A program made the position numbers and the translations under genes. Shown here piece after piece: positions 19,391-41,300 of a stretch of 52,949 nt of DNA. This DNA comes from a virus. Taxonomy: Duplodnaviria; Caudoviricetes. The notes beneath the pieces were generated by a model, which worked only from the letters and a program-made list of their open reading frames with translations, was not told where the DNA came from and ran no database searches. The stretch spans positions 1-52,949 of the IMG/VR virus record IMGVR_UViG_3300031841_001392; one strand, 5' to 3'. How positions within the stretch are numbered: position 1 is the stretch's first letter; the number at the start of each line of letters is the position of its first letter.

Positions 19391-20563
19391 ATGTCCATTA
19401 ACGCATCAAAGGTCAGCCCTTCGCAGGCCTCAGAAATGCTGCTGGCACACGCCATCAGTCAACTATCTGGCGGCAAGCGCCACAAGCCCGTGTATCTCTG
19501 GGGCACCTACGGCGTTGGCAAATCATCCATCGTCAAACAATTGATCACCAAGCTTAGCGCCCACTTTGATAAGCCTGTCGGCTTGCTAGATGTTCGCCTG
19601 TCACAGTTTGACGCAGTCGATACTCGCGGCATCCCGTACATTCGTGACCAGCGCGATGCGCTCGATACGGTGGGTAATGACGAGATTGCTGGCATGAGTG
19701 ACGAGGTAAGACGCGCTGCCTATCAGCTATTGTCGGCTGGGCCATCGAAGACTACCGAGTGGTCTACGCCATCATGGCTGCCCAATGTGGCGCGTGACGG
19801 CGAGTTCGGCATCCTGTTCTTGGATGAGATACAGCTTGCATGCCAGTCGGTCAAAAATGCTGGCTACCAGTTGCTTAATGAGTTCCGCTTGGGCGACTAC
19901 ATCTTGCCTGCTGGCTGGTTTGTCATTGCCGCATCCAACCGTCCCAATGACGGCGCTGGTGTGTCTGGGCGTATGGATGCTGCTGTGAGCACCCGCTTTA
20001 AGTATCACTTAGATGTTATGCCATCCGCTGCTGAGACCACCGATTACTTCCAAGATATTGGGGTTCGCCCAGAGGTAATCGCGTTCCTGAAGTTTCGCGG
20101 TGAGGCTGTCGGTGATCAGGCCGGACTCATTCATGAGTTCCCTAATGGCGGCACCGCAAAGGACAAGGTTGCCATCGCTACCCCGCGAACATGGGAATCT
20201 GTCAGCGACATCCTTGACGATGGTATGGCGGCTGATCTGGAGCACATCGCCATTGAGGGCGCTATCGGCGCTGGCGCTGCTGGCGAGTTTGTCGCCTTTC
20301 TCCGCACCATGCGTAACCTGCCAGACATCAACTTGTTTCTGTCAGATCCGCACAACGTGCCACTGCCCAATGAGATCACCACTCAGTATGCAGTGACCGC
20401 TGCGCTGGCTGCGCGGGTGACCGCCGACAACCTTGGCAATGGCGTGACCGTTGTGTCCCGCATCAACAACGAACTGCTGGAGGTGTTCTGGATACTGGCA
20501 ACGCGCCGTGACCCAGACCTTAAGGCTTCACCTGAGTATGTCGCCCACAAGGCAACGTACTAA
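19391..20563 (+). CDS. MoxR/CbbQ-like AAA+ ATPase
   Basis: GTYGVGKS Walker A, ILFLDEI Walker B, IAASN sensor 1, STRF, ATPRTW. Confidence 0.9.
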   Translation: MSINASKVSPSQASEMLLAHAISQLSGGKRHKPVYLWGTYGVGKSSIVKQLITKLSAHFDKPVGLLDVRLSQFDAVDTRGIPYIRDQRDALDTVGNDEIAGMSDEVRRAAYQLLSAGPSKTTEWSTPSWLPNVARDGEFGILFLDEIQLACQSVKNAGYQLLNEFRLGDYILPAGWFVIAASNRPNDGAGVSGRMDAAVSTRFKYHLDVMPSAAETTDYFQDIGVRPEVIAFLKFRGEAVGDQAGLIHEFPNGGTAKDKVAIATPRTWESVSDILDDGMAADLEHIAIEGAIGAGAAGEFVAFLRTMRNLPDINLFLSDPHNVPLPNEITTQYAVTAALAARVTADNLGNGVTVVSRINNELLEVFWILATRRDPDLKASPEYVAHKATY

Positions 20564-20615
20564 ACCCAACAGGGGCTTCGGCCCCTCCACCTTATTTATT
20601 TTGGAGTAAATACCT

Positions 20616-21491
20616 ATGGACAAGATCCAGAACAACGCAATGCTGATCGCCGCGACGATCAAGAAATTCTCAAACAGCCGCAAAGACACCAGCATATCTG
20701 CTGAGGTTGCCGCGACTAAGAACGCCAACCCCAAGGTCATTACCGTGACCAAGAAACTGCTCGACGCACCCGCCGTTAAGGCACTCAACCGTATCGCTGG
20801 GCAGCTTCGCAACTCAGTGCTCAACCCCCTGACCATGCCTTGGGAAGACGGTGTGCGCCTGATCACCGTTGACCAGATCGAAACATTCGAGGCTGAGTGG
20901 GACAAGAAAGTAGACCGCGCTGAAGAGCTAAAGCGCGAGGTCATTACCGAGTGGCCCAACATACTCAAACGTGCCAAGAAAGACCTTGGTGATTCTTTCG
21001 ATATCTCAGAGCTACCCAGTGCTGAGTTTGTCGCTGGCAGTTACCAATTCAGCTACATACTACGCGCCATGCCCGACTCCGGTGATATCAGGGTCAACCT
21101 GCCTGCCGACAAGATCGCCAAGATCAAGGCTCAGGCCGAGTCCGATATCAACAAGCGCGTCGAGTCTGCTGCTGAGTCTGTGCATGAGCGCGTGATCGAC
21201 ACCTTGCAGTCTCTGGTTGACGGCCTAGAGCGGCACGGTAGCAAGCCTGCTGGTGCCAAACGTGCAAGCAAGTTTGCAGATACTACTGTCGAGAATATCG
21301 AGAAGCTTGCTCAGGTTTTGCCTTCACTCAACATTACCGGCGACCCCAAGCTTACGCAGGCAAGCAACGCTATTCTGTCTCAGCTTAACGGCCTAGATCC
21401 TCAGCGGCTGCGCGACTCTTCGAGTGAGCGTCAGGCTGTTGCCAACAAGGCCAAGTCGATTGTCGATAACCTCACTGGCCTTTGGGATTAA
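20616..21491 (+). CDS. DUF3150-like helical protein
   Basis: KKLLD...TMPWEDGVRLI...LPSLNITGDPKL; sits between the AAA and vWA genes as is typical for this family. Confidence 0.6.
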   Translation: MDKIQNNAMLIAATIKKFSNSRKDTSISAEVAATKNANPKVITVTKKLLDAPAVKALNRIAGQLRNSVLNPLTMPWEDGVRLITVDQIETFEAEWDKKVDRAEELKREVITEWPNILKRAKKDLGDSFDISELPSAEFVAGSYQFSYILRAMPDSGDIRVNLPADKIAKIKAQAESDINKRVESAAESVHERVIDTLQSLVDGLERHGSKPAGAKRASKFADTTVENIEKLAQVLPSLNITGDPKLTQASNAILSQLNGLDPQRLRDSSSERQAVANKAKSIVDNLTGLWD

Positions 21492-21504
21492 CGGAGAAAT
21501 ACTT

Positions 21505-22836
21505 ATGTCAGCGTTAAACATTATGTTGAAAGCTCGACGGCGCATGCTGCGCGAGTTTCCATACTTTGGCTTCCGACTGCATCAGCTACTGCTGGTGCCG
21601 TCAACCAAGACCTCTACGATGGCAACCGATGGAAAGGCTATCTACTTCAACGAGAAGTGGGTGCCTGAGCAGTACGCCATCCACGGTTACAAGTTCATCA
21701 TGACCGTACTGGCTCATGAGATCATGCACGTTGATGGGTTCCATCACCTGCGTAAGGGCAGCCGTGACCACAAGCTTTGGAATGAGGCCGCCGACTACGC
21801 CATCAACTACGCGCTAGTGCGTGAGGGCTTTGAGGTTCACGATGGCCTGTACAGCACCGACTACATTGGCAAGTCTGCCGAACAGGTGTACACCATCCTC
21901 GAAAGCCAGCGCAGCACTGAGGCCGACAAGCCCAGCACTGGCAACGGTGGCGCTGACGATGATGACTCAGGCGATGGCGCTGCCGATGGGGATGCCCCTG
22001 ATCAAGGCGACAACGGCTCTGAGGGCGGCCCTGACGGCGATACTGGCGATGCTGGCGACACTGGCACCTCTGGTGACGGCGACGGCCCTGCTGACCCTGA
22101 CGCGCCTTGGGGCGAAGTCTGGGAAGGCACCAACAATGACGGCACCCCGATGTCTGCTGACCAGAAAGCTTCTGTGCAGCGCGAGATCACCAGCCAGATA
22201 TTCGAAGCTGCCAAGGCTCAGGATAAAATCAAGGGCAAAGGCGAGGGCCGAGGCGCTGCTGTTGACCAGATCATCAGTGGCGTATCCGGTGACCCAGTCC
22301 CTTGGTTCGAGCATCTCAAGGATGCGTTCTCCGACTATGTTCTGACTGAGCACACCTTTGCTCGACCAGAGCGCCGACTGCTCTCGCAGGGCATGATCTT
22401 GCCGACGCAGGAGCGTGAGCCTAACGGCGAGCTTGTTGTGTCGGTAGACACCAGCGGATCAATAGGCCAAGACGAGCTAGACGCTATTGCAGGCCATGTG
22501 CAGGACATCATTGATGAGATCAACCCGATCAAGACTGTGGTGATCTACTGCCACCATGTCCTCTGCGGCGTTGAGGAGTTTGATCGGCATGAGGATCTAA
22601 CGCTCAGGATTCCTGAGACTGGCGGCACGGCATTCAACCCACCGTTCAACTATGTTGCGCGTGAGGGCTTGGAGCCATGCGCGATGATCTACTTCACCGA
22701 TGGCTGGGGTGACGTTGGGCCAGACGGCTGGCACGACTTCAGTGAGCCTGACTATCCGGTGATCTGGGCAACGACAGACCGTGAGCCTTTCTTCGCTGGG
22801 TGCGAACCCTTCGGTGAGGTGATACGGGTTACATAA
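21505..22836 (+). CDS. Metallopeptidase + vWA domain protein (DUF2201-like)
   Basis: TMATDG, LAHEIMH (HExxH), WNEAADYAIN, acidic linker, DTSGSI MIDAS, GGTAF, YFTDG. Start set at ATG 21505 (GGAG RBS). Confidence 0.88.
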   Translation: MSALNIMLKARRRMLREFPYFGFRLHQLLLVPSTKTSTMATDGKAIYFNEKWVPEQYAIHGYKFIMTVLAHEIMHVDGFHHLRKGSRDHKLWNEAADYAINYALVREGFEVHDGLYSTDYIGKSAEQVYTILESQRSTEADKPSTGNGGADDDDSGDGAADGDAPDQGDNGSEGGPDGDTGDAGDTGTSGDGDGPADPDAPWGEVWEGTNNDGTPMSADQKASVQREITSQIFEAAKAQDKIKGKGEGRGAAVDQIISGVSGDPVPWFEHLKDAFSDYVLTEHTFARPERRLLSQGMILPTQEREPNGELVVSVDTSGSIGQDELDAIAGHVQDIIDEINPIKTVVIYCHHVLCGVEEFDRHEDLTLRIPETGGTAFNPPFNYVAREGLEPCAMIYFTDGWGDVGPDGWHDFSEPDYPVIWATTDREPFFAGCEPFGEVIRVT

Positions 22837-22838
22837 CA

Positions 22839-22973
22839 GCGGCAATAGCCGCGACCCATCCTAGCCACGATGTAAAACTTGCACGATGCGTCCTGAGTAT
22901 GACGAGAAAAACTGCTCACGCTGATTTCAGTGTAGTGCCTACCTTGGTGGTCACTACGGTGCAATCCGCACCG
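22839..22973 (+). ncRNA. Intergenic structured RNA including an H-type pseudoknot
   Basis: S1 CGTC/GACG 22889-22904; S2 TGAGTA/TGCTCA 22894-22918; flanking hairpins. Confidence 0.45.
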
Positions 22974-23006
22974 CAACCCATTACTTATTTTTTGGAGAAT
23001 AGTGAT

Positions 23007-23351
23007 ATGAGATTCGAGATTACGTTAACGCTGGCAGTGGTATGCGCTGCTTTGTCTGCGCTTATGGCGCTGCTGGGATACGAGTACTCTTTCGGCAGCG
23101 GGTTCGGGTTAACGCCCGTGATCGCATTCCCCGCGATGATCGCGTTGTGGTTTGTTCCGGTTTGGTTTGTTTACAGCAACCGCACACCTTCGGTTGAGCA
23201 AGAGCTTTTGGAAAATTACCTCAATGACCTGCGTTACTGGGCAGGCACTGGTTCGGTGAATTACTTCACCAATGGCACCCCTTACTTTGAGACTAGTGAG
23301 GAGCTTATGGATTACATCAAACTCGTAGAAACCGCCGTGGAGGGCAAATAG
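23007..23351 (+). CDS. Membrane protein with two predicted TM segments
   Basis: GGAG RBS before MRFEITLTLAVVCAALSALMALLG; second hydrophobic stretch VIAFPAMIALWFVPVWFVY. Confidence 0.65.
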   Translation: MRFEITLTLAVVCAALSALMALLGYEYSFGSGFGLTPVIAFPAMIALWFVPVWFVYSNRTPSVEQELLENYLNDLRYWAGTGSVNYFTNGTPYFETSEELMDYIKLVETAVEGK

Positions 23352-23352
23352 T

Positions 23353-23586
23353 ATGGATAATCAAGAGAAGTTTGAGAAGGTGAGCATGGCGCTTCACGAA
23401 GCCCTGCCCGATGATTTAGAGGGTGGGTGGGAGATCGCCAGAATCATTGGCATGGTCTTGCTCACCTACAAGGTCAGCTCTCCAGCAGAGGCTGCACTGA
23501 TCTGCGTAGAGGCTGCCAGCGAATACAGCGACTGGCTAGTCGAGCAGTTAGAAGAATGCACCTGCTCACCAGAGGAGATGCATTGA
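23353..23586 (+). CDS. Hypothetical acidic protein
   Basis: GGAGG RBS; 77 aa. Confidence 0.65.
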   Translation: MDNQEKFEKVSMALHEALPDDLEGGWEIARIIGMVLLTYKVSSPAEAALICVEAASEYSDWLVEQLEECTCSPEEMH

Positions 23587-23723
23587 TGTGTGATCGACCC
23601 GACAGTTCGTTTCACAACCCATACGAGTATGACGCAGAATACTGCGATGCGTGTGGCGCTGAGATGTACGAAGATGAGGACGAAGAGGGCCGAATGTTAC
23701 CGTTCTGCCCAGACTGTCCATAG
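23586..23723 (+). CDS. 45-aa Zn-ribbon peptide
   Basis: TGATG overlap, GAGGAG RBS; CDAC...CPDC. Confidence 0.6.
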   Translation: MCDRPDSSFHNPYEYDAEYCDACGAEMYEDEDEEGRMLPFCPDCP

Positions 23724-23976
23724 TTGACCGCTGGAGTGTATTAGGTTCTAATCACCGGACTCCTGCTCTCCCCACCCCCTGCCAAGCCTCTCCAGCTTGG
23801 TTAGGGGGAACCCCCCCTAGTTTATTGACCAGTCAATAAGTAAAAAAGTTTGCGTCCTGCATGCTTTACAACTCCCATATGAAAACAACATTTAGATAGC
23901 TCGACACCAAACAGGTACATCTTGCGCCCAAAATCTGGGATGAGTCCCAGTATCGTGTTAGTCATCCTGCCCCACG

Positions 23977-24358
23977 GTTTTTGATAGCCCACCTACAACT
24001 GTGTTTTGCATCACCACTGGCACACATAACACCGCTATTGGTAACGGCGCTGGTAACGTAGCGACGGGTACTTACAACACGGCTATAGGTGACCAGCGGT
24101 ATCAGTTCCTACAGGCTGTTTTTGATAGCCACCCCCAAGCCGGACAGAAAATACACCAAGGGTCACAAAAACATTTCTGTCGGTGATAAAAATATTTATG
24201 TCGGTAGTACCGGACAGACAGACACCCCTATGGGGTGGTGTCTGTCTGTCCGTCCTGACTGGTTTATATATTCCTGCTCAGTCGGCAAGACCACAGGTAT
24301 CTACAACACACCTATAGGTGCTATGTGGAATAAGGCTTTGCGGGGTTTTTTGATAGCC
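23977..24358 (+). repeat. Structured array: three TTTTTGATAGCC repeats interleaved with tail-fibre-like TTGxxNTxIG cassettes and hairpins
   Basis: GATAGCC preceded by T5/T6 at 23983, 24124, 24352; cassettes at 24013, 24061, 24155, 24206, 24290; perfect 16-bp inverted repeat 24211-24252. Confidence 0.75.
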
Positions 24359-24418
24359 AGTTATTCGCTACCAACTTTCCAACTTTTTACGCGAATGTGC
24401 GTAAGTTGCTTGTGGTTG

Positions 24419-24850
24419 CTAAACCGAATCTAGGACGGTTGTCAGAGTCTCTATGTCAGACAGCGAGTCGGTTGGCTTGTCCTCTACTATCATCAGGTAG
24501 GTCAGGGAGGCTGCATGCTCCCCAAATTCTTTTGCAATTCTTTTGAACGTGCGACTGAGCATCAGGATTTGTTCGTTGCGATTTCCCCGATGCCCACCAC
24601 TGTGCGTAGCGGTCATGTCTGGACTCTTGAGGTAAACGCCAGCCTGAACAGCTTGCGAAAGTATTCTCTCGGCAGCTTGGTGGTGCCTAATCGTTATGTA
24701 TTTCTTGAGCAGTAAATGATCAATGAATGTCTGGTCAGCAACACGGGCGCGGCCTATACCGCTATCGGATTCCTCCAAGGCGATGACATGGCGGCGGTGG
24801 AGTGCCGCCGTGCCAATGTCGTTAACCTTAGATTTCAACGTCCCACTCAT
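24419..24850 (-). CDS. DUF6456-like protein, possible late-transcription regulator
   Basis: RARVADQTFIDHLLLKKYITIRHHQAAERI pattern; directly downstream of primase-helicase. Function is inference. Confidence 0.5.
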   Translation of the reverse strand: MSGTLKSKVNDIGTAALHRRHVIALEESDSGIGRARVADQTFIDHLLLKKYITIRHHQAAERILSQAVQAGVYLKSPDMTATHSGGHRGNRNEQILMLSRTFKRIAKEFGEHAASLTYLMIVEDKPTDSLSDIETLTTVLDSV

Positions 24851-26594
24851 CGTCGGTCTCGTTAAAGTCTTTCACCCTTGGCGGCGAGAACGGGTCTGGC
24901 AGATCGTCATAGCTGATTTCACTGTACCTGCCCGTAGGTATGTCATAGTCCAAGACGGTGCCGCCCGTAGTGCCTATCCATTTGAACCTGACCTTCCAGA
25001 CATGTATCTCAGTGGCCTTCTCTGGGCTGAGGTGTACGGTGATCCCAAGGTCTGCCTTGGCAAAGAAGCTGGCGCTACCAGAGATGTTCATCCCCTTTGG
25101 CACCGCTGTTGTGCCGTCTGGGTTGGTTGGCATCTTGGCTGGGTGAGCGATAAACCAGATGTGAATCTGATTGGCTCTAGCAAACGCAACAAGCCTAGTC
25201 AGCATCTCATTGATGCCCTGATGCTCATTGTCCAATGACCTACTCTGCGAAATGTAATTGTACGGATCGATGACCAAGCCTCGTATGCCCAGCCTCATAA
25301 CAGCTTGCCTAGCGCGGTCTAGGATACTGTCGATTGTGGTTGCCTCGCCTCCACGCTGCTCCAAGAACAGGAAGTGATCGTTGACCCAGTTCATAGCACT
25401 GACAGACTCAACCCTGCTCATGCGGTTTGGCATCCCGTCAAAGAACGGCTTGCCGACAAACTTTTCTGATAGCTTGGCGATGTGCAGGGGAGGTGGGTTC
25501 TCAAAGCTTGCAATGGCAAACCTCCAGCCCTCGTTTTGTGCCAGATTAACCATTATCTGGTCAATAAACTCAGACTTGCCAGATCCCGGCAGTCCGGTAA
25601 CCACAGACAACTGCCCCGGCACCACTGTGAATAACCTATCGACAGACGGTATCCCCGTAGACATCCCGCCCACCAAGCCGTTGTCGTACAGGTGAGCAAT
25701 GTCCAAAGCATAGTCATCCGCTGAGTACACACCCTCCAACGGCATAGCTGCCGCCCTGTCAATTGCCAGTGCCAATGCCTCTGGCCCAAGCTTTACCAGA
25801 ACATCGTTTGCGTCCTTGCATCCATCAGGCCATTCGACAGACCAGCACTTGGCCCTACCGATACGCCTAGCCAACTCCTCAGCCAATGCGAACCCAGCAT
25901 CGTCACCGTCAGCAGCTAGGACAATCCTGTCTACCCGCTCAATCAAATCCTTTGCCGCCCAGATGTAGGCGAACTTGTTATCGTCTTCTGGGTTTAGTTC
26001 TTTTGTGCTTACTTTCTGTGGCGCACCGTTGGGTACGCTGACGCAGGAATCTATGCCAGCCGTAGCGCATGCCAGCAAATCCATTTCACCCTCGACAATG
26101 ACCAGTGTGGTTGCGTCATCTGGCACCTGCTCTGCACCCCACAGGGTTCGGGCAGCACCGTCTTGTGTAAACGCCTTGCCCTCGACGCTACGCCACTTCA
26201 CTGCTTCTTTGTTGCCGTAGACAAAACCGATAGACGGCTGCTCACCGCTGTTGTGGTAGAACTTTGTGCCACTAACGACCGGATACCTGTCAACGACAGA
26301 CGGGTCTATACCTCTATCTGACAAGCATTTACTGATCAACTCTTTATCGGTGGTCTTCGGTACGGATATTGCCCTGACTTTGGGTGCCTGTGGGCGGTAG
26401 TCTGGATGGTCTGTTTTGCCAGCTAAACCGCAATGATGGCAGTGATACAGGGTTGTGTTCCCGTCCATCGTTACAGTCATTGATTTCATGCCCTTCTTCT
26501 TTCTTGTTTCACTGCATACTGGGCAAGGTATACGAGCGTTCTCGGTGTATTGGACTAGGATCGAATCCAAGTCTTCTTTATTTAGCATTTGCAC
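24828..26594 (-). CDS. Primase-helicase (T7 gp4 / Twinkle-like)
   Basis: CPVC...CHHC Zn finger, TOPRIM VEGEMD and DGDDAG, KDANDVL, TGLPGSGKS Walker A, LVIDPYN, IAHPAK. Confidence 0.93.
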   Translation of the reverse strand: MQMLNKEDLDSILVQYTENARIPCPVCSETRKKKGMKSMTVTMDGNTTLYHCHHCGLAGKTDHPDYRPQAPKVRAISVPKTTDKELISKCLSDRGIDPSVVDRYPVVSGTKFYHNSGEQPSIGFVYGNKEAVKWRSVEGKAFTQDGAARTLWGAEQVPDDATTLVIVEGEMDLLACATAGIDSCVSVPNGAPQKVSTKELNPEDDNKFAYIWAAKDLIERVDRIVLAADGDDAGFALAEELARRIGRAKCWSVEWPDGCKDANDVLVKLGPEALALAIDRAAAMPLEGVYSADDYALDIAHLYDNGLVGGMSTGIPSVDRLFTVVPGQLSVVTGLPGSGKSEFIDQIMVNLAQNEGWRFAIASFENPPPLHIAKLSEKFVGKPFFDGMPNRMSRVESVSAMNWVNDHFLFLEQRGGEATTIDSILDRARQAVMRLGIRGLVIDPYNYISQSRSLDNEHQGINEMLTRLVAFARANQIHIWFIAHPAKMPTNPDGTTAVPKGMNISGSASFFAKADLGITVHLSPEKATEIHVWKVRFKWIGTTGGTVLDYDIPTGRYSEISYDDLPDPFSPPRVKDFNETDDEWDVEI

Positions 26595-27732: not shown

Positions 27733-28038
27733 ATGTTCAAGATCGAAGACAGTCCTAAGCCACCCTCGAAAGAATCTCTATTGAGGATTGAGGTTATGGA
27801 GACCATAGCAGCGTTGAAGGCCGGTCAGCACTTTGATGTGCCTTATGACTACGAAGGCCTTGGCAAGGTTCGGGTTGTGAGCTGTGTCAACAACTACGTC
27901 AGCCAGTTCAGAATTGGGCAGGGTAAAGACTGTCCGTTCATTTACAAGGTCACTAACTGTAAAAAGGAAAAAGGCGGGTACTCTCGCGTTTCCATGCACA
28001 AGTGGCACAAAGTTCTACCACAACACGAAATACGATGA
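27733..28038 (+). CDS. Probable paralog of the preceding protein
   Basis: AGGAG RBS before MFKIEDSPKPP...LKAGQHFDVP...YSRV. Confidence 0.55.
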   Translation: MFKIEDSPKPPSKESLLRIEVMETIAALKAGQHFDVPYDYEGLGKVRVVSCVNNYVSQFRIGQGKDCPFIYKVTNCKKEKGGYSRVSMHKWHKVLPQHEIR

Positions 28039-28916
28039 AGATTACTAACCAGTTCAACCTCCCTGATGTCGTTGTGGATGCATTGCTGCAAGATGATTAC
28101 ACCAAGGGCAGGTCAAACAGGTCTGTTACAAGCCTTATCGACAGCCCCCGTGTAGCGATATTGCAGCGCAATAACGAACACCGGATAGAGCAGGATGTCG
28201 TGGATTTCCTGTGGTCTCGGTTCGGCACATCTGTTCACGGCATGTTTGAGAAGGCGGTAGCCAACAATGAGCATGCCAACGTGATATCAGAGGAACGCAT
28301 GTACGCCGAGGTCAGGGGTTGGACGATTAGCGGTGCTGTTGATTTGCAGGAAGTGTATGACGATGGCGTACTGATCAGCGACTACAAAGTCACATCAGTG
28401 TGGTCTGTCATTCATGACAAGACTGAGTGGCACAATCAACTGAACGCATATGCTTGGCTTGTTCGCTGGTCTAAAGATTTACCAGTCAAGGGGCTAAGGA
28501 TCATTGCAATCCTGCGTGATTGGCAGAGGCGTAAAGCCCAGATGGAGGCAGACTACCCTAAGTCGCCAATCCATATTGTCGAGATACCCTTGTGGTCAGA
28601 GGACGATGCCGACAAGTACATACGAGGACGGGTGAGGCTTCATCAGGAGGCTGAGTACGACTATCTGGTCAGTGGCAGCGATCTACCGGCCTGTACAGCC
28701 GCTGAGAGATGGGAGAAGCCAACTACCTATGCTGTACTCAAAAAAGGCCGTAAACGGGCTGTGCGCGTTCTGACAACGAGAGAAGAAGCTGAGGCCTACA
28801 TCGAACCACTTGGCACAGGCCATGCGATAGAGGAGAGGCTTGGTGAGTCAACCCGATGTTCGCAAGACTGGTGCCGTGTAGCGAGGTGGTGTGATCAATT
28901 TCAAATGGAGTCTTGA
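28035..28916 (+). CDS. PD-(D/E)XK Cas4-like exonuclease
   Basis: SVTSLIDSPR, FGTSVH, ISGAVD, ISDYKVTS, QLNAYAWL, C-terminal Cys cluster; ATGA overlap start. Confidence 0.85.
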   Translation: MKITNQFNLPDVVVDALLQDDYTKGRSNRSVTSLIDSPRVAILQRNNEHRIEQDVVDFLWSRFGTSVHGMFEKAVANNEHANVISEERMYAEVRGWTISGAVDLQEVYDDGVLISDYKVTSVWSVIHDKTEWHNQLNAYAWLVRWSKDLPVKGLRIIAILRDWQRRKAQMEADYPKSPIHIVEIPLWSEDDADKYIRGRVRLHQEAEYDYLVSGSDLPACTAAERWEKPTTYAVLKKGRKRAVRVLTTREEAEAYIEPLGTGHAIEERLGESTRCSQDWCRVARWCDQFQMES

Positions 28917-29396: not shown

Positions 29397-30119
29397 ATGG
29401 AAAATGACGTATCGCTAGGCGATATCTGGGCCACCCTTTACCCAGTGAAATGCAACGAGTTTGCAAAGAAGAAAAACGGGTTGACCTATTTGGCTTGGAA
29501 CGAGGCTTGGCGGCTGCTCATGAGCCACTACCCTACCGCTCATTACGAGTTCGGGGAGAACGAGGTTCATGCTGATGGCTCGCAAACAGTTCACTGCACA
29601 GTAGCTATCGCAGGCCATGCACGGCACATGTGGTTGCCGGTCATGGACTACAAGAACAAGGCTATACCTAACCCCAACGCCCGTGATGTCAGCGACACAA
29701 AGATGCGCTGCTTGGTTAAGACCATTGCAATGTTCGGGCTAGGGTTCCATATATTTCAAGGGCAGGTTCAGCCTGAAGACACATGGGACGATTCCACAGA
29801 AGAGGCGAAAGAAGACAAGCCCGTCGCTGAAAAGCCGGTTGCCAAGAAGCCTGCTGCAAAGAAGCCAGAGCCAGAGTTTGACGATGATGACTTCTTTTTC
29901 ACCGATACTCAGGAGGGTGCAGACCACTGGGTAGATCGGTTAATCGAAACGGTGAACGGGCTGGTGGAGACCAAGAAGGGTCTACGCAGTATCTGGGATG
30001 GAAATAAGAAGGCGGTGGACAAGCTACAGGCTGAGTACCCCGAATCTTACAAACGATTGGCTGACGTTATGAAAGCCAAGCAAGACGAACTAAAGAAGAA
30101 GGAGTCCGAAAATGGATAG
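29397..30119 (+). CDS. Single-strand annealing protein, Sak3/DUF1071 (Rad52-like)
   Basis: LTYLAWNEAW...MWLPVMDYKNKAI...MRCLVKTIAMFGLG. Confidence 0.85.
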   Translation: MENDVSLGDIWATLYPVKCNEFAKKKNGLTYLAWNEAWRLLMSHYPTAHYEFGENEVHADGSQTVHCTVAIAGHARHMWLPVMDYKNKAIPNPNARDVSDTKMRCLVKTIAMFGLGFHIFQGQVQPEDTWDDSTEEAKEDKPVAEKPVAKKPAAKKPEPEFDDDDFFFTDTQEGADHWVDRLIETVNGLVETKKGLRSIWDGNKKAVDKLQAEYPESYKRLADVMKAKQDELKKKESENG

Positions 30120-32080: not shown

Positions 32081-32300
32081 GGAAAGTGTTGAAGAGTTCC
32101 TTGCCCGTGGTGGCAAGATACAGGAAGTGCCTTTTGGCGAAATTACCATCAAAGATCCAAAGCTCGGCAACCATGGCCCAAGCAAAGTAACTGCTCAGGC
32201 GCACATAAGAGCTAGTCAAAAGCGTGAGCAGAAGAAAGACAAAGCCAAATCCAAGGTTAAGGTGTTTGGGTTCAACAGGCCCAGCCCTAAAAAAGATTAG
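32073..32300 (+). CDS. Small phage protein (VEEFLARGGKIQEVPFG)
   Basis: GAGGAG RBS; converges on and overlaps the end of the giant gene. Confidence 0.6.
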   Translation: MSKESVEEFLARGGKIQEVPFGEITIKDPKLGNHGPSKVTAQAHIRASQKREQKKDKAKSKVKVFGFNRPSPKKD

Positions 32301-35300
32301 ATATCCTGTTAGCTATAGTCTCTGTTGCCGTGGGCAGTTCTATATATCTTTCTAGCTGCGGGACGATGCTCAGATAGTACTGCTCTTGAGTATTGATAAA
32401 TCTCATCTGCTCCTGCTTCTGATCTGCCGTCAGGTCAGACTTCAACAACGTTCTACGCTGCTTCCTGAGATCTGCAAGCGCACTGGCTGTAGGCTGTAGC
32501 TGCTTCCTCAGACCTATGAATTGCTTTTTATTTACCAAGAAACTCTCAAGCTCATCAAACCTACCTTGGTCTTGCAGAAGCTTGGCTGCGTTCTCGGTAC
32601 GCTTAATGTAGTCCCACATCTCGTAGAAGTCTTCTTTGTTACCGCCACCAAACTCACTGGCAAAGAATCTTCGTATGATCGGATACTGAGAGACATCGGT
32701 TCCAGCAAGCACCGCTCTGTTGTCTCCTTGAAGAAAGCTGTCTCTCAATCCGTAATCAGCCATGCCCAAGATATAAGATCCAATCGTGCCGCCATAACCT
32801 TTCATCAAATGATCTAGTTTGATCGGGCTGATGCCCAAGACCTTCGCCATATTCTTGGCAACCTCCGTTGTAGAGGCAAGCTCTTGAAGCTCTGGTGGCA
32901 ATGATGAATCTATAAATACGGGAGTTACAGGCCTGCCTGTATAGAGGTCGTAGTTCATGTACGCCTCCATAATTGGAGTTACTGCCTGTGGAGGCTGAAC
33001 ACCAAGCGTTCCAAACACTGCTCGGCCTATTGATTGCTGCGCCTCTCTGGCGGTGGTGCCTTCGTTGTAAGAGTCAATGATCCGCTCAGGCAGCGTCTTG
33101 AAAATAAGGCCAACCTCAAACGGGATTGGAATTCTAACCGGCACACCAGACGGTGTTGGTATAAGCCAGTAGTTGTCTTTTATTTCTTCGGTCTGCTCTT
33201 TGTACTGCTCATCATCACTAACCATTGTGTAGTAAATGGCTGTGCTCGCAGCTATCAAAGATCCTCTGGCGATAAAGCTCATGGCTGCCTGAGAGCGTGA
33301 CAAGTCTCTGTTGGCAGAGCTTTTGCCTGTACCGGCCCGTGCAAGGACATCTAAGCCTTGTATCCTAGCGTTCAAGAAAGGAATCGTTGCTGTAACCAAA
33401 CGCATAACAGGGCTGCTGCCACGGCGACCAAAGTTCAACACTTCCATCGCTTGATAGCTGGCTTCTGCCTCATTACCTGTACGGGCTAATACATCGTTGT
33501 AAACAGCGTTTCTAGTAGCAGCGTCTGAGCGAGTTGTCGCTTGACCAAGAAGATCCCAACCGCCGATAAAGAATTTACTAAGAAGCCCTCTTTGATCTAC
33601 ATTCTTGTTTCTTTTTTGAAGTATCTTTCCTGCGTACTCGCCAATGTTTTCTGGGTCATTCTTGTAGTCATAACCGCCTACAACACCTGTCCTCTCAAGC
33701 TTCTCCATTCCTTCAGCGTAACCAGCAATGGTATCGGCTATTGGCACAAAGCTAGACCCAGAAGTGACGAATGCAGACAGCGAGTCACGCAGCATGTTTG
33801 CAATAACAAACCCCGGCTCCCGTGTAACCATCTCTCGCAAAAAACGGGATGGGAAACCCAGTATCTTAGAAACTTCACGCTCTACACCACCAGCAGGCTC
33901 AACAGTCAACGACTCATATATTAACGGGTCATCAACAATGAACTTACGTCTATTGCCGTTGACTTTGAAGGTGACAACAGCCTCGCCTGTAGTGTTCTGT
34001 CCCGGCTTGACCTCTCTTGCTAGGCCAATGTTTCTCATATCCCTGACAATGCGTTGCTGGGCAACATTCTTCATGCCCATGCTAATCGCTGCGTTCAGGT
34101 TCATGGATATTGCTTCCAAGAGCGGCACGTTAACTTCTTTTTCGCTGCCTTTGATTGCCTTTAGGTCTGCGCTTGCAGTCAGGCCGCCAAAGATGTTCGG
34201 CGCGTTTGGAGTGTCGGCACCTTCTACTTGACGATAGAAAGGCACATAGTCTGACTGGTCTTGCCACATCTCTGCGGTCTCTGCATCAACAACACCCGTA
34301 TCTTTGAGAAACTGAACGGTGTAGCCGTTGTAGTCTTGCCAAGCGTCATACCAGTCCTTGATTATTGAATTGCCATTCTCATCCAAGAAAGACTCTGCGG
34401 TTGCAATGTTAGCTGCATGATCCGCCGGGGTTCCCGGTACAGCTATGCCTTTTGCTCGCAAACGCTCGGATCTCTTAGCTATTGAGTAGGCCTGAGCCAT
34501 TTGCTCAAGAGACCCATGCTCCTTGGTGTACAGCATGGACATCAAATCTATGAGGCCTCTAATTTTTTTGGTTTCGCCCCGACTGTTGGTGTGGTTGAAA
34601 TCCGCTATCTTGGTCATACCGCCTGTGTACACAGGGACACCGTACTGAAGAGCGGCTGCGGTTATCGCATTAGATCTGTCAGCCATCAGAGCGGCAGCCA
34701 AAGACGATGAGTCAGCAAGCAAGTTGCCAAGCATGCCTTGGTAGTTTTCTAGCTGGGCATACCTATTGACCGCTGCCTGTTTAGCCTTGGTCAACCACTT
34801 GGCTATCGGCCCTTGATCTAAGACGTTGAGATAGGTCTGTCCGGGGGTATTCGTGGGTAGGTCTGCAACAACATTGTCTATTGCAGCCTGAGCAGCGGGG
34901 TTTATCTCTGGCGCGTTAGACCTAGAGAATGCAGGCATTTCACTATCTGAAAGCTCTTGGCCTTTGTCTGGGTCGGCTGCTACAGCTTGTGCATATCGGT
35001 CTGCGCCGGGATTAAACCGTGGCACCGTGCCTGCGGGACGATTCTCTGCTATTTGTAGATTGTCAGCTACAACACGGTCAACTTCGCTTTGACCTATGAC
35101 CTCTCTGCGCTTGTATTTATCAAGCAGGTTGAATGGAAGCCCTACGTCTTCAGTCTGTACCTCTCTGGCAGCATCGCCTCTTCCTCTGCGCCTAGAGGCT
35201 GAGTCGGGTCTCGGTCTGGGTACGCCGCCATCAGATAGTTTTCTCTCGTAAGTGGCTGCTTGGTCGCCTTCAGGTATCCCTCCGTCAGATCGTTCCCAGT

Positions 35301-38300
35301 CGGGCGGCTTGATTTGTCCTGCATGTTCATAGATGGCCTCTCTAGCCTGATCCAGCGTTATTTGCTTCTTATTATACTGCTTCCATATATTGTCTACAAC
35401 TTCCACATTACTGTTTTGAGACTTGTACTCTGGTCGGAAAAGGCCTCTGACCGCTTCCCATGTAATGGACTGCATCTCTCTAGGTAAAACACCGCGCTCC
35501 TTAGCAGCACGGCGGTAGGCCTCCTCGTAGATTGAGTACACGCCGTTTAGGCCCGTAATACTTGACGATGAACCCTTCGTTCCAAAATTGTGAGAAACCT
35601 CAAATGCACTGCCGCCAAGAGGCTTAAGAAGTCCTGCCGCAACAGCATGGGTGTCTATGGTTACATAGCCAAGATCCGAGTCTGGATCGAATATGTTGTT
35701 GTAAAAGTTTCTGACTTTGTTTGCCGAACCAAGCGATGCAGATATGGTGTCAATGTCAGTTTCTCTTAGGGCTTTAATTGACTTGGCTATCTCAGTTAGA
35801 GACCCCCAAGCCACCTTAGAGTTGCTACCGTCAGAATTCTTTGCGTAGTCGAGAAGTCTGCCGTCAGGGGATACAATCCTGTAGCTAGGGTCGTTATAGG
35901 TCTGGTCAAAAGTCCTGATCCACATAGCGCCTAGCTGCTCACCTTGCCCCGGCTCATTGAATTTATCCAGTACTTGATCAAGGGAGCTAGAGCCTATCAG
36001 ATTAAGCATCTCACGATTTCTGGCTTGACCCTTGGCGCTTATGCCATCATGAAAGAATATTTCTTCGGCGCGAGCTTTCATCTCAGGAGTAAAAGGCTGC
36101 CCTGCGTGATCAAAGAACGTATCAATAGTTCTCTCTGCGAGCGAGGCGTTTTGATACCAGTCCTTTTGCGGAGACAGGTTGGCTGCAACAGCAGCAGCTT
36201 GTTGCATGGTTAAGTTGTGACGTTCTGCAAATCTACGGACTAAAGCGTTTGCGCCTTTGTACCAAACCTTCGAGTTATTACGGGTATCAGCCGGAACCCT
36301 GTCATATATATTGAGCAGATTATTCTTAACAAGCTCAACAAATGCCTCTGCTTTTTGTTTATCTGATCTTAGGTCTTTTGATTTCTGCAGTATCGGATAG
36401 AGGTTAGCGTCTTTGATAAGCTCCATGTTCTTGCCAAAGACCTTGCCGTCAGCAAGAAAGGTTTCGTAGTCATTGACTAGTAAGTCTTCAAGAGGGTCTT
36501 CTTTTGATCTGGCGGCTGTGGGGTATCGGGTACTTACATTACCCTCTATACCGCCCTGTTCAGCGGCTCGCCTAGAGAACATGGGTGATTCTTCAAAGCC
36601 GTCCCTGCCTTCACGGGATGTCCACTCAGGCATCAAGCCCATCTTCTGGTCAGCAAAGACGGTGTCTAGTACACCAGCTCCTTGGTTTTGCTCGCCATAT
36701 GGGCCGTAGTTCAGCCAGCTATTTTGCCCCCTAGTCTCAGACGTAAGTGCCTGTAACGCTGGGCCAGTGAATAGTTTGGCGTGTGCCTGCCATGCATTTT
36801 CCTCACCGCGAGCGCGGAATCCAGCACCTTCTATGCCGTGACCAAATGCGTCATGTACAGCCCTGAATAAGTCGTTGTTGGTGACTATTTGCTCTCGACC
36901 TAGCTGATCTTTCCATCGCAACCCTGTGTCACGCAACATAACCCTGTTTGGATCGCCTATATCGTTATAGAAGTCATCTAAGGTGCCGTAACCGTCATAA
37001 GTGCCATAGACGGACATGCGCTTGTTGCTGCGCAAGTCCCGCATTGCGTTGTACGGGTTGCCGTCATAAGGGTCTGTGTCTGAATCATAGAAATCAAACT
37101 CAAAACCTTCGTCAATCAAGGCATCGTATTGGTTGCGTGTTTGCCTAGCCAGATCCTCATAAGCATCCCTAACATTAGGATCAGTGGGATCATCAGCCAT
37201 CTCCTCATAAGCCTGCGCTATCCGAGTGGCTCTCTCTGGGTCTACCCTTACATACTCCGATTGTCTGGCAAGCGGGATGCCATAGGTCTCTGCATATCGC
37301 TCTGCTGCGGCATTGATTGCTGGGTCTGGCCCCGTGGCCCCTGCCCTGATCGGCGCTCCTTCGAGCGGCGTTCTGCTTGCACCCTGATCTTCTGTCGGCG
37401 CAACGCTTCGTGCCTGATCGCGTCCTCTTCCGTCTCTTCCGCGTTGGGGTCGTACATTATCACCTCCAAGGTTTGATATGTTTCTGGCAACGATGCCTTT
37501 AGTGCCTGACGCATCAATAGGTTGTGCTAACTGCTCAGGATCAATCATTTCGTAAAGAAACTTTGATTGCCCCGACTTGATATCAAACTTGCTGCCTTCA
37601 GGTACAAGATGTTGGTCTCTTGAGTCGGCAAACTCTACTTCGCCAACCTCAATAGGCTCTCCTACAGTGGCGTAACCAACAAGTTTTGCAGGCCCAGAAC
37701 CTGTCTCCACTATGCCAATACGCTTACCCACATAGGGGCGCAGCGAGTCTTTGTCGCGTGTCTCGTATTTTTTCTGACCGCTGACAATTAACTCAGCATA
37801 GTTAGTATCTCCATCAGTTCTGACGTTGATACCCATCTCAGCTTCTGTTGGCGCTCTGCGAGAAAACAGCGTTTCAAACTGCTCGCCACTTGGCAGAACA
37901 TTTTTTGTTGCGTTCTTGGCTAATACTAACGGGCCAACCTGTATTACTTCTTCAGCAAAGGTTACTGGCTCGCCGGTCTTTCTGTCGTAGAAGTATGAGT
38001 GTCTTCTTGGATCAAAACCAACCTGAACCCAGTCTGGAGAGTTAATGAATTCCTCTGCAAGTGATGCTGTTTGCTCCGGGTCTCTGTTTACAAAGTCTCC
38101 CATGATTTGGGCAAACGGAAACTTGTTTTTTCCCTCCATAACGGAACGAGCGTCTTCTTGAAGGTTTTTAGGGTCTCTTCCCGCTCTTTCTCTAAGCATG
38201 GTGAAATCAGCATTTTTGATTGATGCTGTAGCCATGTGAGATATCGATTTGCCTTTCTGGTCGTGAATCGTTGGCACCCAAGTGCCAAAGTTTTTGTATG

Positions 38301-41300
38301 CGTTGATATCTAATCTAAGACCAACGCGAGACCCATCAGGAACCTCTGCGTTTATTTTGTCTTTCTGGCTTTGAACAGCTAAAGCCTCAAACATCTCTTC
38401 TGTAGTGGCAGGCTCTGGAACAAAGTCATAAGGCTCAATTGTTCCCAGAACAACAGAATCATATTGCTGTCTGGTAAATTCCCCTGACTGCAATTTTGAG
38501 TAAGCATCGGCAACTTCAGGCCTAACCTCTGTTTGGGGAGCGCCTACAGCCCTTCTGCTAAAATCGGGAACAGACTGACCCTGCATCGCTGCGTCACGTT
38601 CTGCCTCTTCGCCGGTGGTGATGACTGTGCCGGGGGGTGGTTTGGCTAGGGTTCTAGATGCGGCCTTCTCTGTTTGAGCAAAGGTTCTTATCTCACCTCT
38701 CTGTCTACCACCTATGGTGCCTGAGCCTATGCCGCCGATAACCTCGCTGAAGGTATTGAACTGCTCGCCTCTAAGGGCTGAGACCATGTTCCTAAAGAAC
38801 CTAGCTATGCGCTCTACAAGGGATCTTGGCTTGCCCTGTAAAAGTTTACTGTCTTCTCTTGCTCGTCTGACTAGCTCGGCAACAGATTCTTCTACCTGAT
38901 CTACTGGGCTTAAGTCATTGTAGTTGTTTTGCGCCCACTTGAGGAATGTCTGTGGGTTGCCATCCCTGTCTTTGGTGGGGTGTATCTTTTTGCTTGCCGC
39001 CCTTGAGAGAAGATTCCATTCTTTGTTGGTGAACAGATCCAGCTTACGCATGGCATGGATCATTTCGTGATCTAGAAGAGCCAGCAATTCTGCCTCTACC
39101 TGAGCATCTGTCAGGGTTTTACCCTGCATAGCTTTGTCTATTGACAAGAAAATAGTATTTATTCTCGGGTCGTAGTAAGCCTCTGCTCTGTCCTCTGGGT
39201 CTGCCTGATCAGACCGAACAAGCTGGTACTTGGCCTCTCTAGCTAAAGCGGCCTCACCACCAATCACATCTGCATCTATATCGCCGCCCTGTCTAGGCCT
39301 TATGCCGTAAACAAGATTGCCCAGAGGATCTTTGACCGCTGTCCTGAGCGCATAATCTAGGCTTAGGCCAACGTCCTTCAAACCAAACCCTGTCATCACC
39401 TTCTTGATTGCAGAGCGTAATCGGTCAACGTCTACCGATGGCGCAGGCAGAGCGAGTGTTTCTTGTTGCTGCTCCACCACAGTCTCAACCGGAGCAACCG
39501 GCTTCACACCCTGCTTGGCAATGTCCTTACGCAACTCCTGCATAGACTCAGCGCCACTCTTGGTCGCTATATTTATACCTGTAGCGTCAGCTAGGGCTAA
39601 CTCGCCTGCATTCGGATTTTCTTGCAGGGTTTGGACAGCAGCACGGAACTGCGCCCCTGTGTACTTGGGCAGCTTGAATGTGGGCAGCTTGGTAGGCTTG
39701 TCAAATCGTGGCAGTGATCTAAGACGTTGATATAGCAGCCTAGCCTCAGCAACAGACAGATCGTTTATCGACTTGATAGTCTTCTTGCCAAGAATCCTAG
39801 ACGCAAGGTACTTGACCTCTGGAGACCCCACCTTGGAGGTTATGTTCTTTGCTTCCAACAGCGACTGCATCTCTTGGAAGTTGCCATCGACGTTACGCAT
39901 AACACCTTTTTCGACGGCAGCCTTGCCAGTGGCGTTGTTTAGTTGGTTGGCATAGACCCTAGCATCAGCCTCGGTCTTGAACTTGACCAGCTTAGGCGGC
40001 TTCTTCTTGGGGTTTGCCTTGATCTCAGCGTCTTTCTCTAGGACGGTCAGAGGCCTGCCCTGAAGCACCTCGCCTGCGCTGCTCCTGATAATAGGGTTGC
40101 CAGCTTTACTAAGATCAGCGTTGTACGTTTCTGTCTCTGGAAGACCATTTACCCGTGTATCGGTAAGGTTATATAGCTGGTCTTCTTTCAGTACGCTTCT
40201 GACTTCTTCAATGGTGAAGTTGTTTGTTACTGGCAGACCCTTACGCAGACGCTTCGCGTTGATGCGCTGAGAGGCAGTCATCTTGGACGGCCCTACACGG
40301 TTTTCTACCAGTGTTTTGACATCAGCAACCTCATCAAAACCACGGTCTTGTGTGGTCTCTGCTGCGCTATCTACGGCAACAGATGTGTAGGTGTTGGAGT
40401 CTGGGTGATTTACAGCGAAGTTGTAGGCTTGAAGTGTAGAAGCTTGATCTGTGTCATACGCTTCTGGAGATGTGGAGATAACAGCGTCACCGGCAGAAAA
40501 GACGTTGTCGTTGATGATTTCGTCATTAAGAAACCCAGCAAGAGCGAAGGCATCTTCTGAGTTGTTGAGTGGTATGCCGAACTGCTGACCAGAACTGTCT
40601 TGTACAGTAAAGACGGGAACGCCAGTCTCATCTAGCTGCGTGGTGTCTCCTAAAGCACCGCCAAACTCTTGTGGCAGGTTAACGGTAAATGAGTTGTCTG
40701 CTGACGGGAAACTATCACCCATTGTCTGGCGTATCTGTTGGGCATAGGCAAGCATCGGCTGTTTCGGGTATCGCCTTTGAATGCCTGCGGTAGGCTCTGC
40801 GACAGTGGTGATCTGCAAACCTGTCTGCTGAGGCACACCATTTACAGAGGTAATCACCTCGCCGCCACCGGGAACCTCAACAAAGGTTGTGACCTGCTCT
40901 GTAGGCTTACCCTTGTTTCTTATTCTGGTCTTTTCTTCTGCTTGAAAGGTCTGTCCTGATGCATCAGATATGTTAACTATTCTTGCGGGAGTCTTTAACT
41001 TGGTTGTGAGCGCCCTGCCTGTAGGTGGAGCTATCTGAGCGGGATCTACCTCTGCTCCAGCAGCCTGCCTACGGGCCTCAGCGGCAGCCTTTACGTCTAG
41101 ATTAGACTGAGCGTCTATACGAGCTTGTTCTGCAAGGTCTTTGGGTAGGTTTGCCTGTCTTTGATTCTGGGCATCTTCTAGGTCTTCTCTTTTCTTTCTC
41201 TCTGCTTCTTCTGAGGACTTGAAGGCATCTTTGTTGCGCCTTCCAGCTACAGCGTTCAAGACTAAGTCAGCGCCTGCGCCGATAGCACCGCCTACGGTGA

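Follow-up and report, generated by a model that had tools for sequence, protein, structure and literature searches.

Why should the gap between two converging operons of a marine phage carry, all on one strand, pieces that read like the repeats of the phage's own tail fibre? The question is raised by positions 23977 to 24358 of the window, by which we mean the whole stretch of DNA that was analysed (52,949 nucleotides, nt), i.e., record G000, a 52.9-kb uncultured marine phage for which CheckV estimates 95% completeness. A preliminary description of this DNA had taken the pieces for silent donors or a template array that serves to vary the receptor-binding fibre. The reading to which we lean, tentatively and short of an even chance, is a different one, namely that the stretch is a doubled, drifting and exchangeable cassette of repeat units that was copied from coding sources.

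The layout of the stretch is repeat-X-repeat-X'-repeat, where X and X' are diverged copies of one cassette of about 128 nt. Its parts are as follows.

23977-23989, + strand: boundary repeat 1 (GTTTTTGATAGCC), whose T-run at 23978-23982 has 5 T
23990-24117, + strand: cassette X, 128 nt; two full repeat units behind a degenerate unit start
24010-24093, + strand: block 1, two fibre-type units reading ITTGTHNTAIG-NGAGNVA-TGTYNTAIG
24118-24130, + strand: boundary repeat 2, 141 nt (47 x 3) behind repeat 1
24131-24345, + strand: cassette X', the diverged copy of X in the other frame; its unit at 24290-24319 is better than the degenerate ones at 24155-24184 and 24185-24205
24201-24268, no strand assigned: 68-nt insertion/deletion, which contains a perfect 16-bp hairpin (24211-24226 / 24237-24252)
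24346-24358, + strand: boundary repeat 3, with 6 T, 228 nt (76 x 3) behind repeat 2

The 13-nt boundary repeats begin at 23977, 24118 and 24346, and both spacings (141 and 228 nt) are divisible by three. That the cassettes are punctuated by three copies of TTTTTGATAGCC, as had been described, was confirmed: exact copies stand at 23978, 24119 and 24347, where 0.27 are expected, and at least three copies were reached in 0 of 100 shuffles. Between the repeats, X and X' (minus 24201-24268) align colinearly with a score of -12, as compared to -31.5 +/- 5.1 for shuffled sequences, and this score was reached in 0 of 500 shuffles. Because the two align colinearly, the presumed array is one doubled cassette with a boundary repeat at each junction. 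Of the hairpins that had been placed in or beside the cassettes, the one at 24211-24252 has a perfect 16-bp stem (fold z -4.7) and the pairing of GACAGAAA with TTTCTGTC appears in the computed fold, whereas 24255-24285 turned out to be merely a 5-6-bp stem. The 68-nt segment with the large hairpin is itself polymorphic, being present in the window and in the closely related locus L003 and absent in the related loci L004, L011 and L022 as well as in a metatranscriptome contig of run X16. The folds ahead of each T-run (z -0.7 to -0.8) are not convincing as terminators, and neither a promoter nor a good stem-loop was found in the 13-nt repeat by promoter scan and fold. A mini-array of the CRISPR type was considered and rejected, since the repeats are 13 nt long (not about 23-50), the intervals measure 128 and 215 nt, and the CRISPR families of Rfam were unmatched.

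The stretch is real as a feature and is homologous to the repeat family of the fibre, which is encoded at the left end of the window.

2-2212, - strand: tail-fibre gene, 3' end beyond the contig; the N-terminal 250 aa are conserved and are followed by 72-aa super-repeats of TTGxxNTxxG units

The fibre-like peptides that had been listed for the + strand, in two frames, are all where they had been placed. ITTGTHNTAIG from 24010 and ATGTYNTAIGDQ from 24061 are in the frame of open reading frame (ORF) 24001-24186, TKGHKNISVG-DKNIYVG from 24155 and TTGIYNTPIG from 24290 are in that of ORF 24089-24433, and STGQTDTPMG (24206) is a weak unit that lies partly inside the hairpin. Their resemblance to the fibre repeats is likewise borne out. 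A search of all six frames with the motif N[TVI][ASP][ILVM]G gave 12 occurrences in the fibre, four in the 695-nt gap (all on the + strand) and one in the other ~50 kb. In BLASTP against the fibre, ORF 24001-24186 has a best E of 4e-5 (17/38 identical), ORF 24089-24433 one of 0.014 only, and a DNA profile of block 1 (24002-24095) matches the window's own fibre at 269-354(-) with an E of 2.9e-8. The DNA identity of the block to the fibre is about 70%. An identical word shared with the fibre, which had also been noted, exists and is the longest exact match between gap and fibre: the 12-mer TACAACACGGCT at 24073-24084 equals fibre positions 545-556(-), and not 547-558 as had been given, and there is no shared word of at least 13 nt. 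Three 11-mers are shared with the fibre, and since 125 other 382-nt windows reach a maximum of four, the exact words alone are not beyond chance. The 12-nt maximum and this ordinary sharing of 11-mers therefore speak for homology at the level of the repeat family and not for recent copying.

Does the presence of cassettes depend on the type of fibre that a phage carries? The fibre relatives found amounted to at least 588 stretches of 52-80% identity, the closest being 80%, and in the nine records compared cassette presence does not follow fibre type. A repeat-type fibre is accompanied by cassettes in G000, G009 and G011; in G011 these are one block in an ORF that encodes an AT-hook protein and one broken unit upstream of a gene. 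Four near-complete records with a repeat-type fibre (G012, G013, G014 and G015) have no cassettes. G001 has a block nearly identical to that of G009, and its fibre is 52% identical in the N-terminus, different in the distal part and lacks repeats in the 549 visible residues. In G003 (100% complete) both a repeat-type fibre and block 1 are missing, and one degenerate unit is found beside p143, the gene that adjoins the gap. Covariation of array and fibre, for which the preliminary description had suggested looking in relatives, is thus contradicted from both sides, by fibres without cassettes (G012-G015) and by a block without such repeats in view (G001). As to the fibre itself, its first ~170-250 residues are kept in G003 (L086, 80% identity) and G001 (L082, 52%) and the distal part is different, which is a module swap at a fixed joint.

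The enzymatic equipment of the phage was correctly described as lacking a reverse transcriptase: RVT_1 (PF00078) matched 0 of 5 records (G000, G001, G003, G009 and G006, two of them at least 95% complete), in a search whose control gave a match in 3 of 14 genomes. Also correct is that a Sak-like annealing protein is encoded at 29397-30119 and an exonuclease at 28002-28916; with 12 nt of identity these have little to work on. A diversity-generating retroelement (DGR) was rejected as a candidate, since RVT_1 is absent from 5/5 records and the visible fibre, whose 3' end is off the contig, has no near-identical variable repeat. Conversion of the pilS or vls type was rejected because no flank of at least 13 nt is shared with the fibre and the cassettes are not tied to fibre type. 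Given the missing association with fibre type, the longest match of 12 nt and the absence of a reverse transcriptase, the evidence does not support the idea that the fibre is varied by silent donors or from a template array. A search of the literature returned no relevant work on silent or intergenic phage tail-fibre cassettes, and it was too narrow to claim that such arrays are unpublished.

We have further asked how the locus looks in relatives, for which 78 loci were fetched through their primase. Block 1 lies between p143 and the opposing operon in the window group (L003, L004, L011 and L022, primase 99% identical) and at the same place in L005, L007 and L009 (84% primase) and in L016-L020 (57-58%). 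The profile of block 1 was built from the window, L003, L004, L016, L018, L019 and L020, such that hits there are by construction; the independent hits are L005, L007, L009, L011, L017 and L022. At 57% primase identity, block 1 is the only part of the gap that can be recognised, the rest of those gaps being unalignable with the window. The block is missing in the 77%, 66%, 63%, 61% and lower primase groups, and also in L006, L015 and L054, though these belong to the 84% group and their sisters L005, L007 and L009 carry it. Absence or decay in relatives, which had been named as a finding that would speak against a donor array, is therefore seen in part, in these three losses and in the variation of the T-run, the 68-nt indel and the stops. 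Record G001 has a second, single repeat unit in a 65-aa ATG ORF (L018 13309-13506, - strand), 5.6 kb from its first block.

Between lineages, block 1 changes in the way of a codon sequence. The differences at codon positions 1/2/3 are 9/6/17 over 31 codons for window and L016, 10/7/22 over 32 codons for window and L007, 9/8/20 over 32 codons for L016 and L007, and 6/2/14 over 27 codons for window and L019, and the two deep indels in the block, of 3 and 21 nt, are both multiples of three. This third-position bias is the strongest argument for coding constraint. Within the window group, the block differs between window and L004 by 4.8%, other gap segments by 1.9-7.3% and gene third positions by 8-10%.

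Is block 1, then, a gene? Two ORFs come into question.

24001-24186, + strand: ORF of 61 aa with GTG start, called mechanically, which covers block 1; its C-terminal tail is not conserved even in close relatives
23940-23984, + strand: 14-codon ATG mini-ORF (MSPSIVLVILPHGF), which stops at a TGA within boundary repeat 1

A Shine-Dalgarno-like word is absent before both GTG 24001 and ATG 23940, and GGAG, GAGG or AGGA is found, by eye, at most 25 nt upstream of the start in 18 of 28 real genes of the window; the earlier statement that the cassettes occupy two frames without a good ribosome-binding site thus agrees with ours. The leader ORF 23940-23984 is in frame with block 1 only in alleles whose T-run in boundary repeat 1 has 4 T (L004 and L118), and the window, which has 5 T like L003, L011, L022, L116, L117 and L120, would need a +1 shift at TTT-TGA; 6 T occur in an RNA-library contig of run X18. 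Elsewhere the frame is interrupted in different ways: L019 and L020 have an in-frame TAG, L005 a 1-nt deletion that shifts the frame, the open frame of L016-L018 has no ATG, GTG or TTG start, and that of L004 has a stop directly behind the block. Open frames over the block vary in length (34 to 144 aa), and their tails are unrelated. A coding gene should keep its start, ribosome-binding site and stop across relatives; here starts, frames and stops vary and the Shine-Dalgarno-like word is lacking, and no stable ORF covers block 1. A slippery codon followed by a stop and an open +1 frame, as in the RF2 gene, is present (GGT TTT TGA at 23976-23984). This site is not conserved, since the T-run has 4, 5 or 6 T in near-identical relatives, no Shine-Dalgarno-like stimulator lies upstream, and distant lineages do not have it. 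An antisense frame that shares wobble positions and encodes a hydrophobic peptide of the PIAVLCVPVV kind was tried and rejected, as it is open in 2 of 11 other arrays (L122 and L127) and closed in the window.

The repeat unit is by no means confined to this locus. The block peptide, used as a query, found 28 loci in viral and 37 in metagenome sequences, and the frames are shorter than 150 aa in 19 of the 37 metagenome loci and in 10 of the 19 viral loci (of the 28 found) for which a frame was measured. Besides the relatives of the window, these short-frame loci include independent arrays of 2-5 units, mostly with a 48-nt period, in L092/L123/L126, L097/L098/L135, L122, L124, L127, L132/L134, L139/L147, L145/L146 and L121. 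Half of the mapped arrays (5 of 10) lie at converging gene ends, and those of L122 and L135 begin directly behind intrinsic terminators. Between L097 and L098 there are 3/5/3 changes by codon position, one stop and one 2-nt indel. Several unrelated arrays have a Cys 1-4 residues ahead of the first unit. By comparison, 185,579 bacterial and archaeal genomes gave four hits only, all of them long ORFs, and many long relatives end in the SDxRxK chaperone motif. A ToxI-type RNA array was considered because of the 48-nt tandem units in related loci and was rejected because no endoribonuclease gene follows; neighbouring genes were scanned for this purpose in L065 and L098 only, and the four bacterial hits are all long ORFs. 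L065 (1400-2075, - strand) shows yet another arrangement, with four copies of an element of ~65 nt that consists of an A-run, a 5-bp palindrome and one repeat unit, the same sequence of ~37 nt standing before each unit. They enclose, at a converging gene junction of a relative with 45% primase identity, a 141-aa ORF that encodes an Arm DNA-binding domain (PF13356, 5.7e-16).

A second coding home of the module, besides the fibre, is an unrelated family of small AT-hook proteins. In G011, a two-unit block with an AGNNVTTG linker is in frame within a 118-residue protein (L248:363-719) that has an N-terminal AT-hook and a conserved C-domain (phrog_4897, E 1.6e-6). Genes of this family that are otherwise near-identical, with almost unchanged flanks, differ in the block: L261 and L263 have it, L264 and L266 have it in extended and L265 in scrambled form, and L268 lacks it. 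The linker matches the L016 block in 20/20 nt and the L007 block in 25/27 nt, as compared to 14-17 nt for the best match against 81 fibre sequences. A relic of the family's C-domain was not found in the gaps or the window (best E 0.44). The family as a whole (L261-L270) has a C-domain of the form SDGSTAxYYELP...KFYIDAEIKRL, and other members have HTH-like N-termini. Its linker is hypervariable, with 0 to about 40 differing residues between near-identical flanks, some of which are fibre-type units.

Boundary repeats also recur at other loci. The L127 array is bracketed by a 25-nt repeat and the L145 array by an 18-nt repeat with a spacing of 141 nt, as in the window. L350 and L351 hold relatives of the gene that adjoins the L127 array, matched at 1501-2784, and downstream of it lies a hyperplastic locus. 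In L350, the repeat of the L127 locus (~20 nt) brackets a different cargo of ~470 nt with an ordinary small ORF, and in L351 the repeat-bearing unit (~150 nt) is tandemly duplicated in the absence of an array. These comparisons show that the L127 repeat belongs to the locus, and cargo exchange at repeated boundaries fits the pattern of L350 and L351 better than transposition does. An interpretation of the flanking repeats as target-site duplications of a transposon is weakened, since the L127 repeat brackets other cargo in L350. No relative was found in which the window's 13-nt repeat encloses nothing or some other cargo.

That the block is transcribed, with transcripts ending close to boundary repeat 2, is weakly suggested by contigs from three RNA libraries. 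A metatranscriptome contig of run X16, which lacks the hairpin segment, spans 23487-24527 and bridges the whole gap, and contigs of X17 and X18, two oligo-dT RNA runs of one study, cover 23751-24091 and 23779-24115 and end just ahead of boundary repeat 2. From such contigs neither the strand nor the ends of a transcript can be read, and DNA may be present in RNA libraries; the lack of coverage at 24116-24383 in X17 and X18 was given no weight.

How could the doubled cassette have come about? It carries two to three of the 16-17-residue units (TTGxxNTAIG plus linker) that build the distal part of the tail fibres of many marine phages, and a piece of such a coding repeat may have been placed in the untranslated zone between the converging operon ends. 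Unequal crossing-over between the flanking boundary repeats would then have doubled it, and the copies would have drifted, with a change of frame in X', variation in the length of the T-run and gain or loss of the 68-nt hairpin. Copies in real genes (fibres, AT-hook linkers) would stay under protein selection, whereas intergenic copies would be taken from, or exchanged with, this coding pool by recombination at the repeated boundaries and would then decay, such that the window copy yields at most a short and unstable peptide. A source-sink process of this kind is what we propose as the cause of the codon-like change between lineages. The order of these events and the exchange between source and sink are what we infer from the comparisons.

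Several points weigh against this reading. Block 1 is co-located in four lineages (the window group; L005/L007/L009; L016-L018; L019/L020) with a strong third-position bias, and direct selection on a translated peptide would be the simplest reading of that bias together with the in-frame deep indels. An ATG or GTG ORF spans the block in the window group, L007 and L009, and in the 4-T alleles of L004 and L118 an ATG ORF with a hydrophobic start continues into it. The changes within lineages (~6/5/10 by codon position) are too few to separate drift from selection, and change in the whole gap is about half as fast as at gene third positions, so that there is some constraint. RNA-library contigs cover the block.

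In this context the setting of the gap is of interest, which comprises 695 nt (23724-24418). On its left lies a + strand operon with genes for an ATPase and a DUF2201 metallopeptidase/VWA protein, whose last member, a small zinc-ribbon ORF, ends at 23723; on its right, a - strand operon converges on it, in which the primase-helicase gene (24828-26594) precedes p143, the last gene, whose end on the side of the gap is at 24419. Further features are these.

24419-24850, - strand: p143, conserved, with no assigned function; terminates the primase operon and adjoins the gap
23775-23839, + strand: two terminator-like stem-loops behind the + operon, from fold, terminator scan and relatives
23911-23934, + strand: stretch of 24 nt, 96% identical in L007, upstream of block 1 in both lineages

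The primase-helicase is at most 38% identical to those of cultured phages, and blastn of the gap against 50,697 phage records gave zero matches. The conserved part of the gap, ~75% identical in the 84%-primase relatives, is 23727-23861, which contains the stem-loops. Terminator-like sites were found by the promoter/terminator scan only at 23804 and 24386, and one sigma-70-like site was found in 23400-24900, outside the cassettes, against 1.4 expected. The tRNA/tmRNA scan of the whole window gave 0 genes, and Rfam over 23000-25500 at E <= 10 gave three chance-level matches, the best with an E of 1.8. As regards the neighbours, p143 has zero family matches in Pfam and PHROG; it is kept after the primase-helicase in relatives down to ~50% primase identity and is itself 29-45% identical there. 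The ATPase (phrog_1297), followed by the DUF2201 metallopeptidase/VWA-like protein (labelled 'HNH endonuclease' in PHROGs), lies at 19391-22836 (+) in the replication region, and the VWA-like gene can be recognised in primase relatives down to ~45% primase identity (tblastn, 24-77% identity). In the 150-aa ORF at 22899-23351, 173 nt (23180-23352) are replaced by 17 other letters in contigs of runs X17 (RNA library) and X12 (DNA), which is a population variant that shortens this ORF. Amid the virion genes, a 3283-residue ORF (32287-42138, - strand) matches only PHROGs to which no function is assigned (phrog_9854, 3.8e-47; phrog_18222, 1.7e-46); it might harbour a polymerase, as is the case for giant injected proteins of some podoviruses.

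With these observations at hand the rival explanations can be weighed. The fallback readings of the preliminary description, a decayed fibre fragment and a mini-gene frameshifted at its T-tract, come close to the two explanations that lead in our judgement, and the second of these, a mini-gene, we consider unlikely overall; it stays a serious rival because deep codon-like conservation at one locus is otherwise not fully explained. Block 1 would then be a protein of ~35-60 residues with a hydrophobic or Cys-containing start and two beta-roll rungs, whose expression is switched by the length of the T-run (4 T being in frame) or rescued in 5-T alleles by a +1 shift at TTT-TGA; X' would be a dead duplicate, and the expected peptides are MSPSIVLVILPHGF-DSPP... 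and MFCITTGTHNTAIG.... The codon-like divergence in four lineages and the in-frame deep indels argue for such a protein, as do the ATG/GTG ORFs of the window group, L007 and L009, the in-frame homologue of the 23940 ATG in L004 and L118, the 5-T leader with its T-run and TGA, which has the classic shape of +1 slippage, the translation of the block in the AT-hook family, the recurrent Cys before the first unit of unrelated arrays and the RNA-library contigs over 23751-24115. Against it stand the lack of a Shine-Dalgarno-like word at either start, or before the T-run as a stimulator, the stop, frameshift or missing start in L019/L020, L005 and L016-L018, the unconserved tails and lengths, the loss of the block in L006, L015 and L054, the 6-T allele, which throws the leader into the third frame, and the changes between L097 and L098, with their stop and indel; moreover, two rungs of a trimeric beta-roll would probably not fold alone. 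The position between two operon ends also suits an RNA element, be it a 3' untranslated tail of the + operon or an antisense transcript from the primase operon that would dampen fibre synthesis or set its timing. In its sense, the block's + strand corresponds to the coding strand of the fibre, such that a - strand transcript would be antisense to the fibre mRNA, and a need to match many fibre repeats that differ at third positions would leave these positions free; furthermore, two oligo-dT contigs stop beside the T-run of boundary repeat 2 and one contig bridges the gap. Yet Rfam is unmatched at E <= 1, no significant fold exists except in the hairpin insert and the terminator region, and with ~70% identity to the fibre and a longest match of 12 nt the third-base mismatches would hardly permit a stable duplex. 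As G001 has kept the block though no such repeats are in view in its fibre, G012-G015 lack the block despite their fibre type, and the contigs lack strand and ends and may stem from DNA, we regard an RNA element as improbable.

Repeated units, an AT-rich tract (24160-24200) and inverted repeats adjoining the primase-helicase operon could alternatively form a site that acts as DNA, i.e., origin iterons, a packaging element or a promoter element. In L065 and G011, gene starts are preceded at 20-30 nt by single units, and a TAYAAY word within the units is similar to a -10 hexamer. A protein-binding site would not be expected to be conserved with a period of three bases, however, and the lone sigma-70-like site lies outside the cassettes, no + strand gene follows downstream in the window, the copies are confined to one locus per genome (4/4 in G006, 4/4 in G007), and L006, L015 and L054 lack the element and keep the primase; T7-type RNA polymerase (PF00940) was matched in 0 of 6 records in a search whose control was silent, so that its absence is not proven. 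A DNA-level site thus seems very improbable to us. The donor library of the preliminary description, in which silent cassettes would be copied into the fibre gene by the Sak-like annealing protein and the exonuclease, we hold to be the least probable of all. It draws on the fact that silent cassettes elsewhere (pilS, vls) are also start-less, multi-frame and codon-like, that both enzymes are encoded 4-6 kb away and that the fibre is built of the same kind of unit. To the missing association with fibre type in nine records, the longest identical word of 12 nt without flanking homology and the lack of a reverse transcriptase must be added that there are only two good units, which match the conserved and not the variable part of the repeat, that none of the 81 fibre sequences comes as close to the L016 and L007 blocks as the AT-hook linker does, and that L006, L015 and L054 have lost the block. 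We also allow a small chance, somewhat above that of an RNA element, for something that we have not considered.

How does the doubled cassette compare to systems that are known from elsewhere? The pilS cassettes that feed pilE in Neisseria and the vls cassettes of Borrelia are short, promoterless and start-less partial copies of surface genes that lie in several frames and show a codon-like pattern. The stretch resembles them in its start-less, multi-frame copies and codon-like pattern and differs in that identity in the flanks is at most 12 nt, the two good units come from the conserved part of the repeat, and presence is unrelated to fibre type. With the template repeat of a DGR it shares that a non-coding copy of a receptor-binding gene is conserved in a codon-like manner; here, in contrast, 5/5 records have no reverse transcriptase, there is no near-identical variable region and adenine-specific differences cannot be defined. 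The left-handed beta-roll head repeats of trimeric autotransporters and the phage fibres with a terminal S74-type chaperone domain have the same xTTGxxNxAxG unit with a period of 14-17 residues, whereas the window copy consists of two units without the rest of a fibre and has no hit in Pfam.

Closer in organisation are the hyperplastic regions of phage genomes, where, as in the promoter-stem-loop cassettes of T4-type phages and the linker sequences of lambdoid phages, repeated boundaries flank small cassettes that are shuffled. The likeness lies in direct repeats that bracket interchangeable cargo or none and in tandem doubling between repeats; the difference is that what is enclosed here is a piece of coding repeat that lacks a stable ORF, and that the 13-nt repeat has neither a promoter nor a good stem-loop. 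For the T-run, the obvious comparison is the +1 frameshift of RF2, which takes place at CUU-UGA in prfB. Alike are the T-run followed by TGA, the block that is open in the +1 frame and the in-frame 4-T alleles of relatives; unlike RF2, there is no Shine-Dalgarno-like stimulator, the leader has no good ribosome-binding site and a 6-T allele exists. These features of the T-run fit plain homopolymer slippage. Palindromic elements of Rickettsia, lastly, are modules that are found in frame in unrelated proteins as well as in non-coding DNA, with differences in presence and absence, as is the case here, although the phage module showed neither palindromic ends nor an autonomous partner and has no known mechanism of mobility. 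It is conceivable, if doubtful, that the two-unit block, with recombination-prone boundary repeats on either side, is a coding module that spreads by itself from one marine phage to another. If so, it would land in fibres, where it adds rungs, in the hypervariable linkers of small proteins that bind DNA and in the dead zone between converging operons, and it would correspond, in phages, to the in-frame repeat elements of Rickettsia and drive the growth of fibre repeats.

A silent library that rewrites the receptor-binding protein would be a new route to altered host range, and the evidence argues against it at this locus. What emerges in its place is that one repeat module recurs in the fibres, the AT-hook linkers and the non-coding operon ends of many uncultured marine phages, often between boundary repeats, and it is thereby a traceable marker of how small coding pieces are exchanged and discarded in phage genomes. 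In our reading, in which this exchange is proposed, codon-like conservation in the absence of an ORF may arise from just such traffic.

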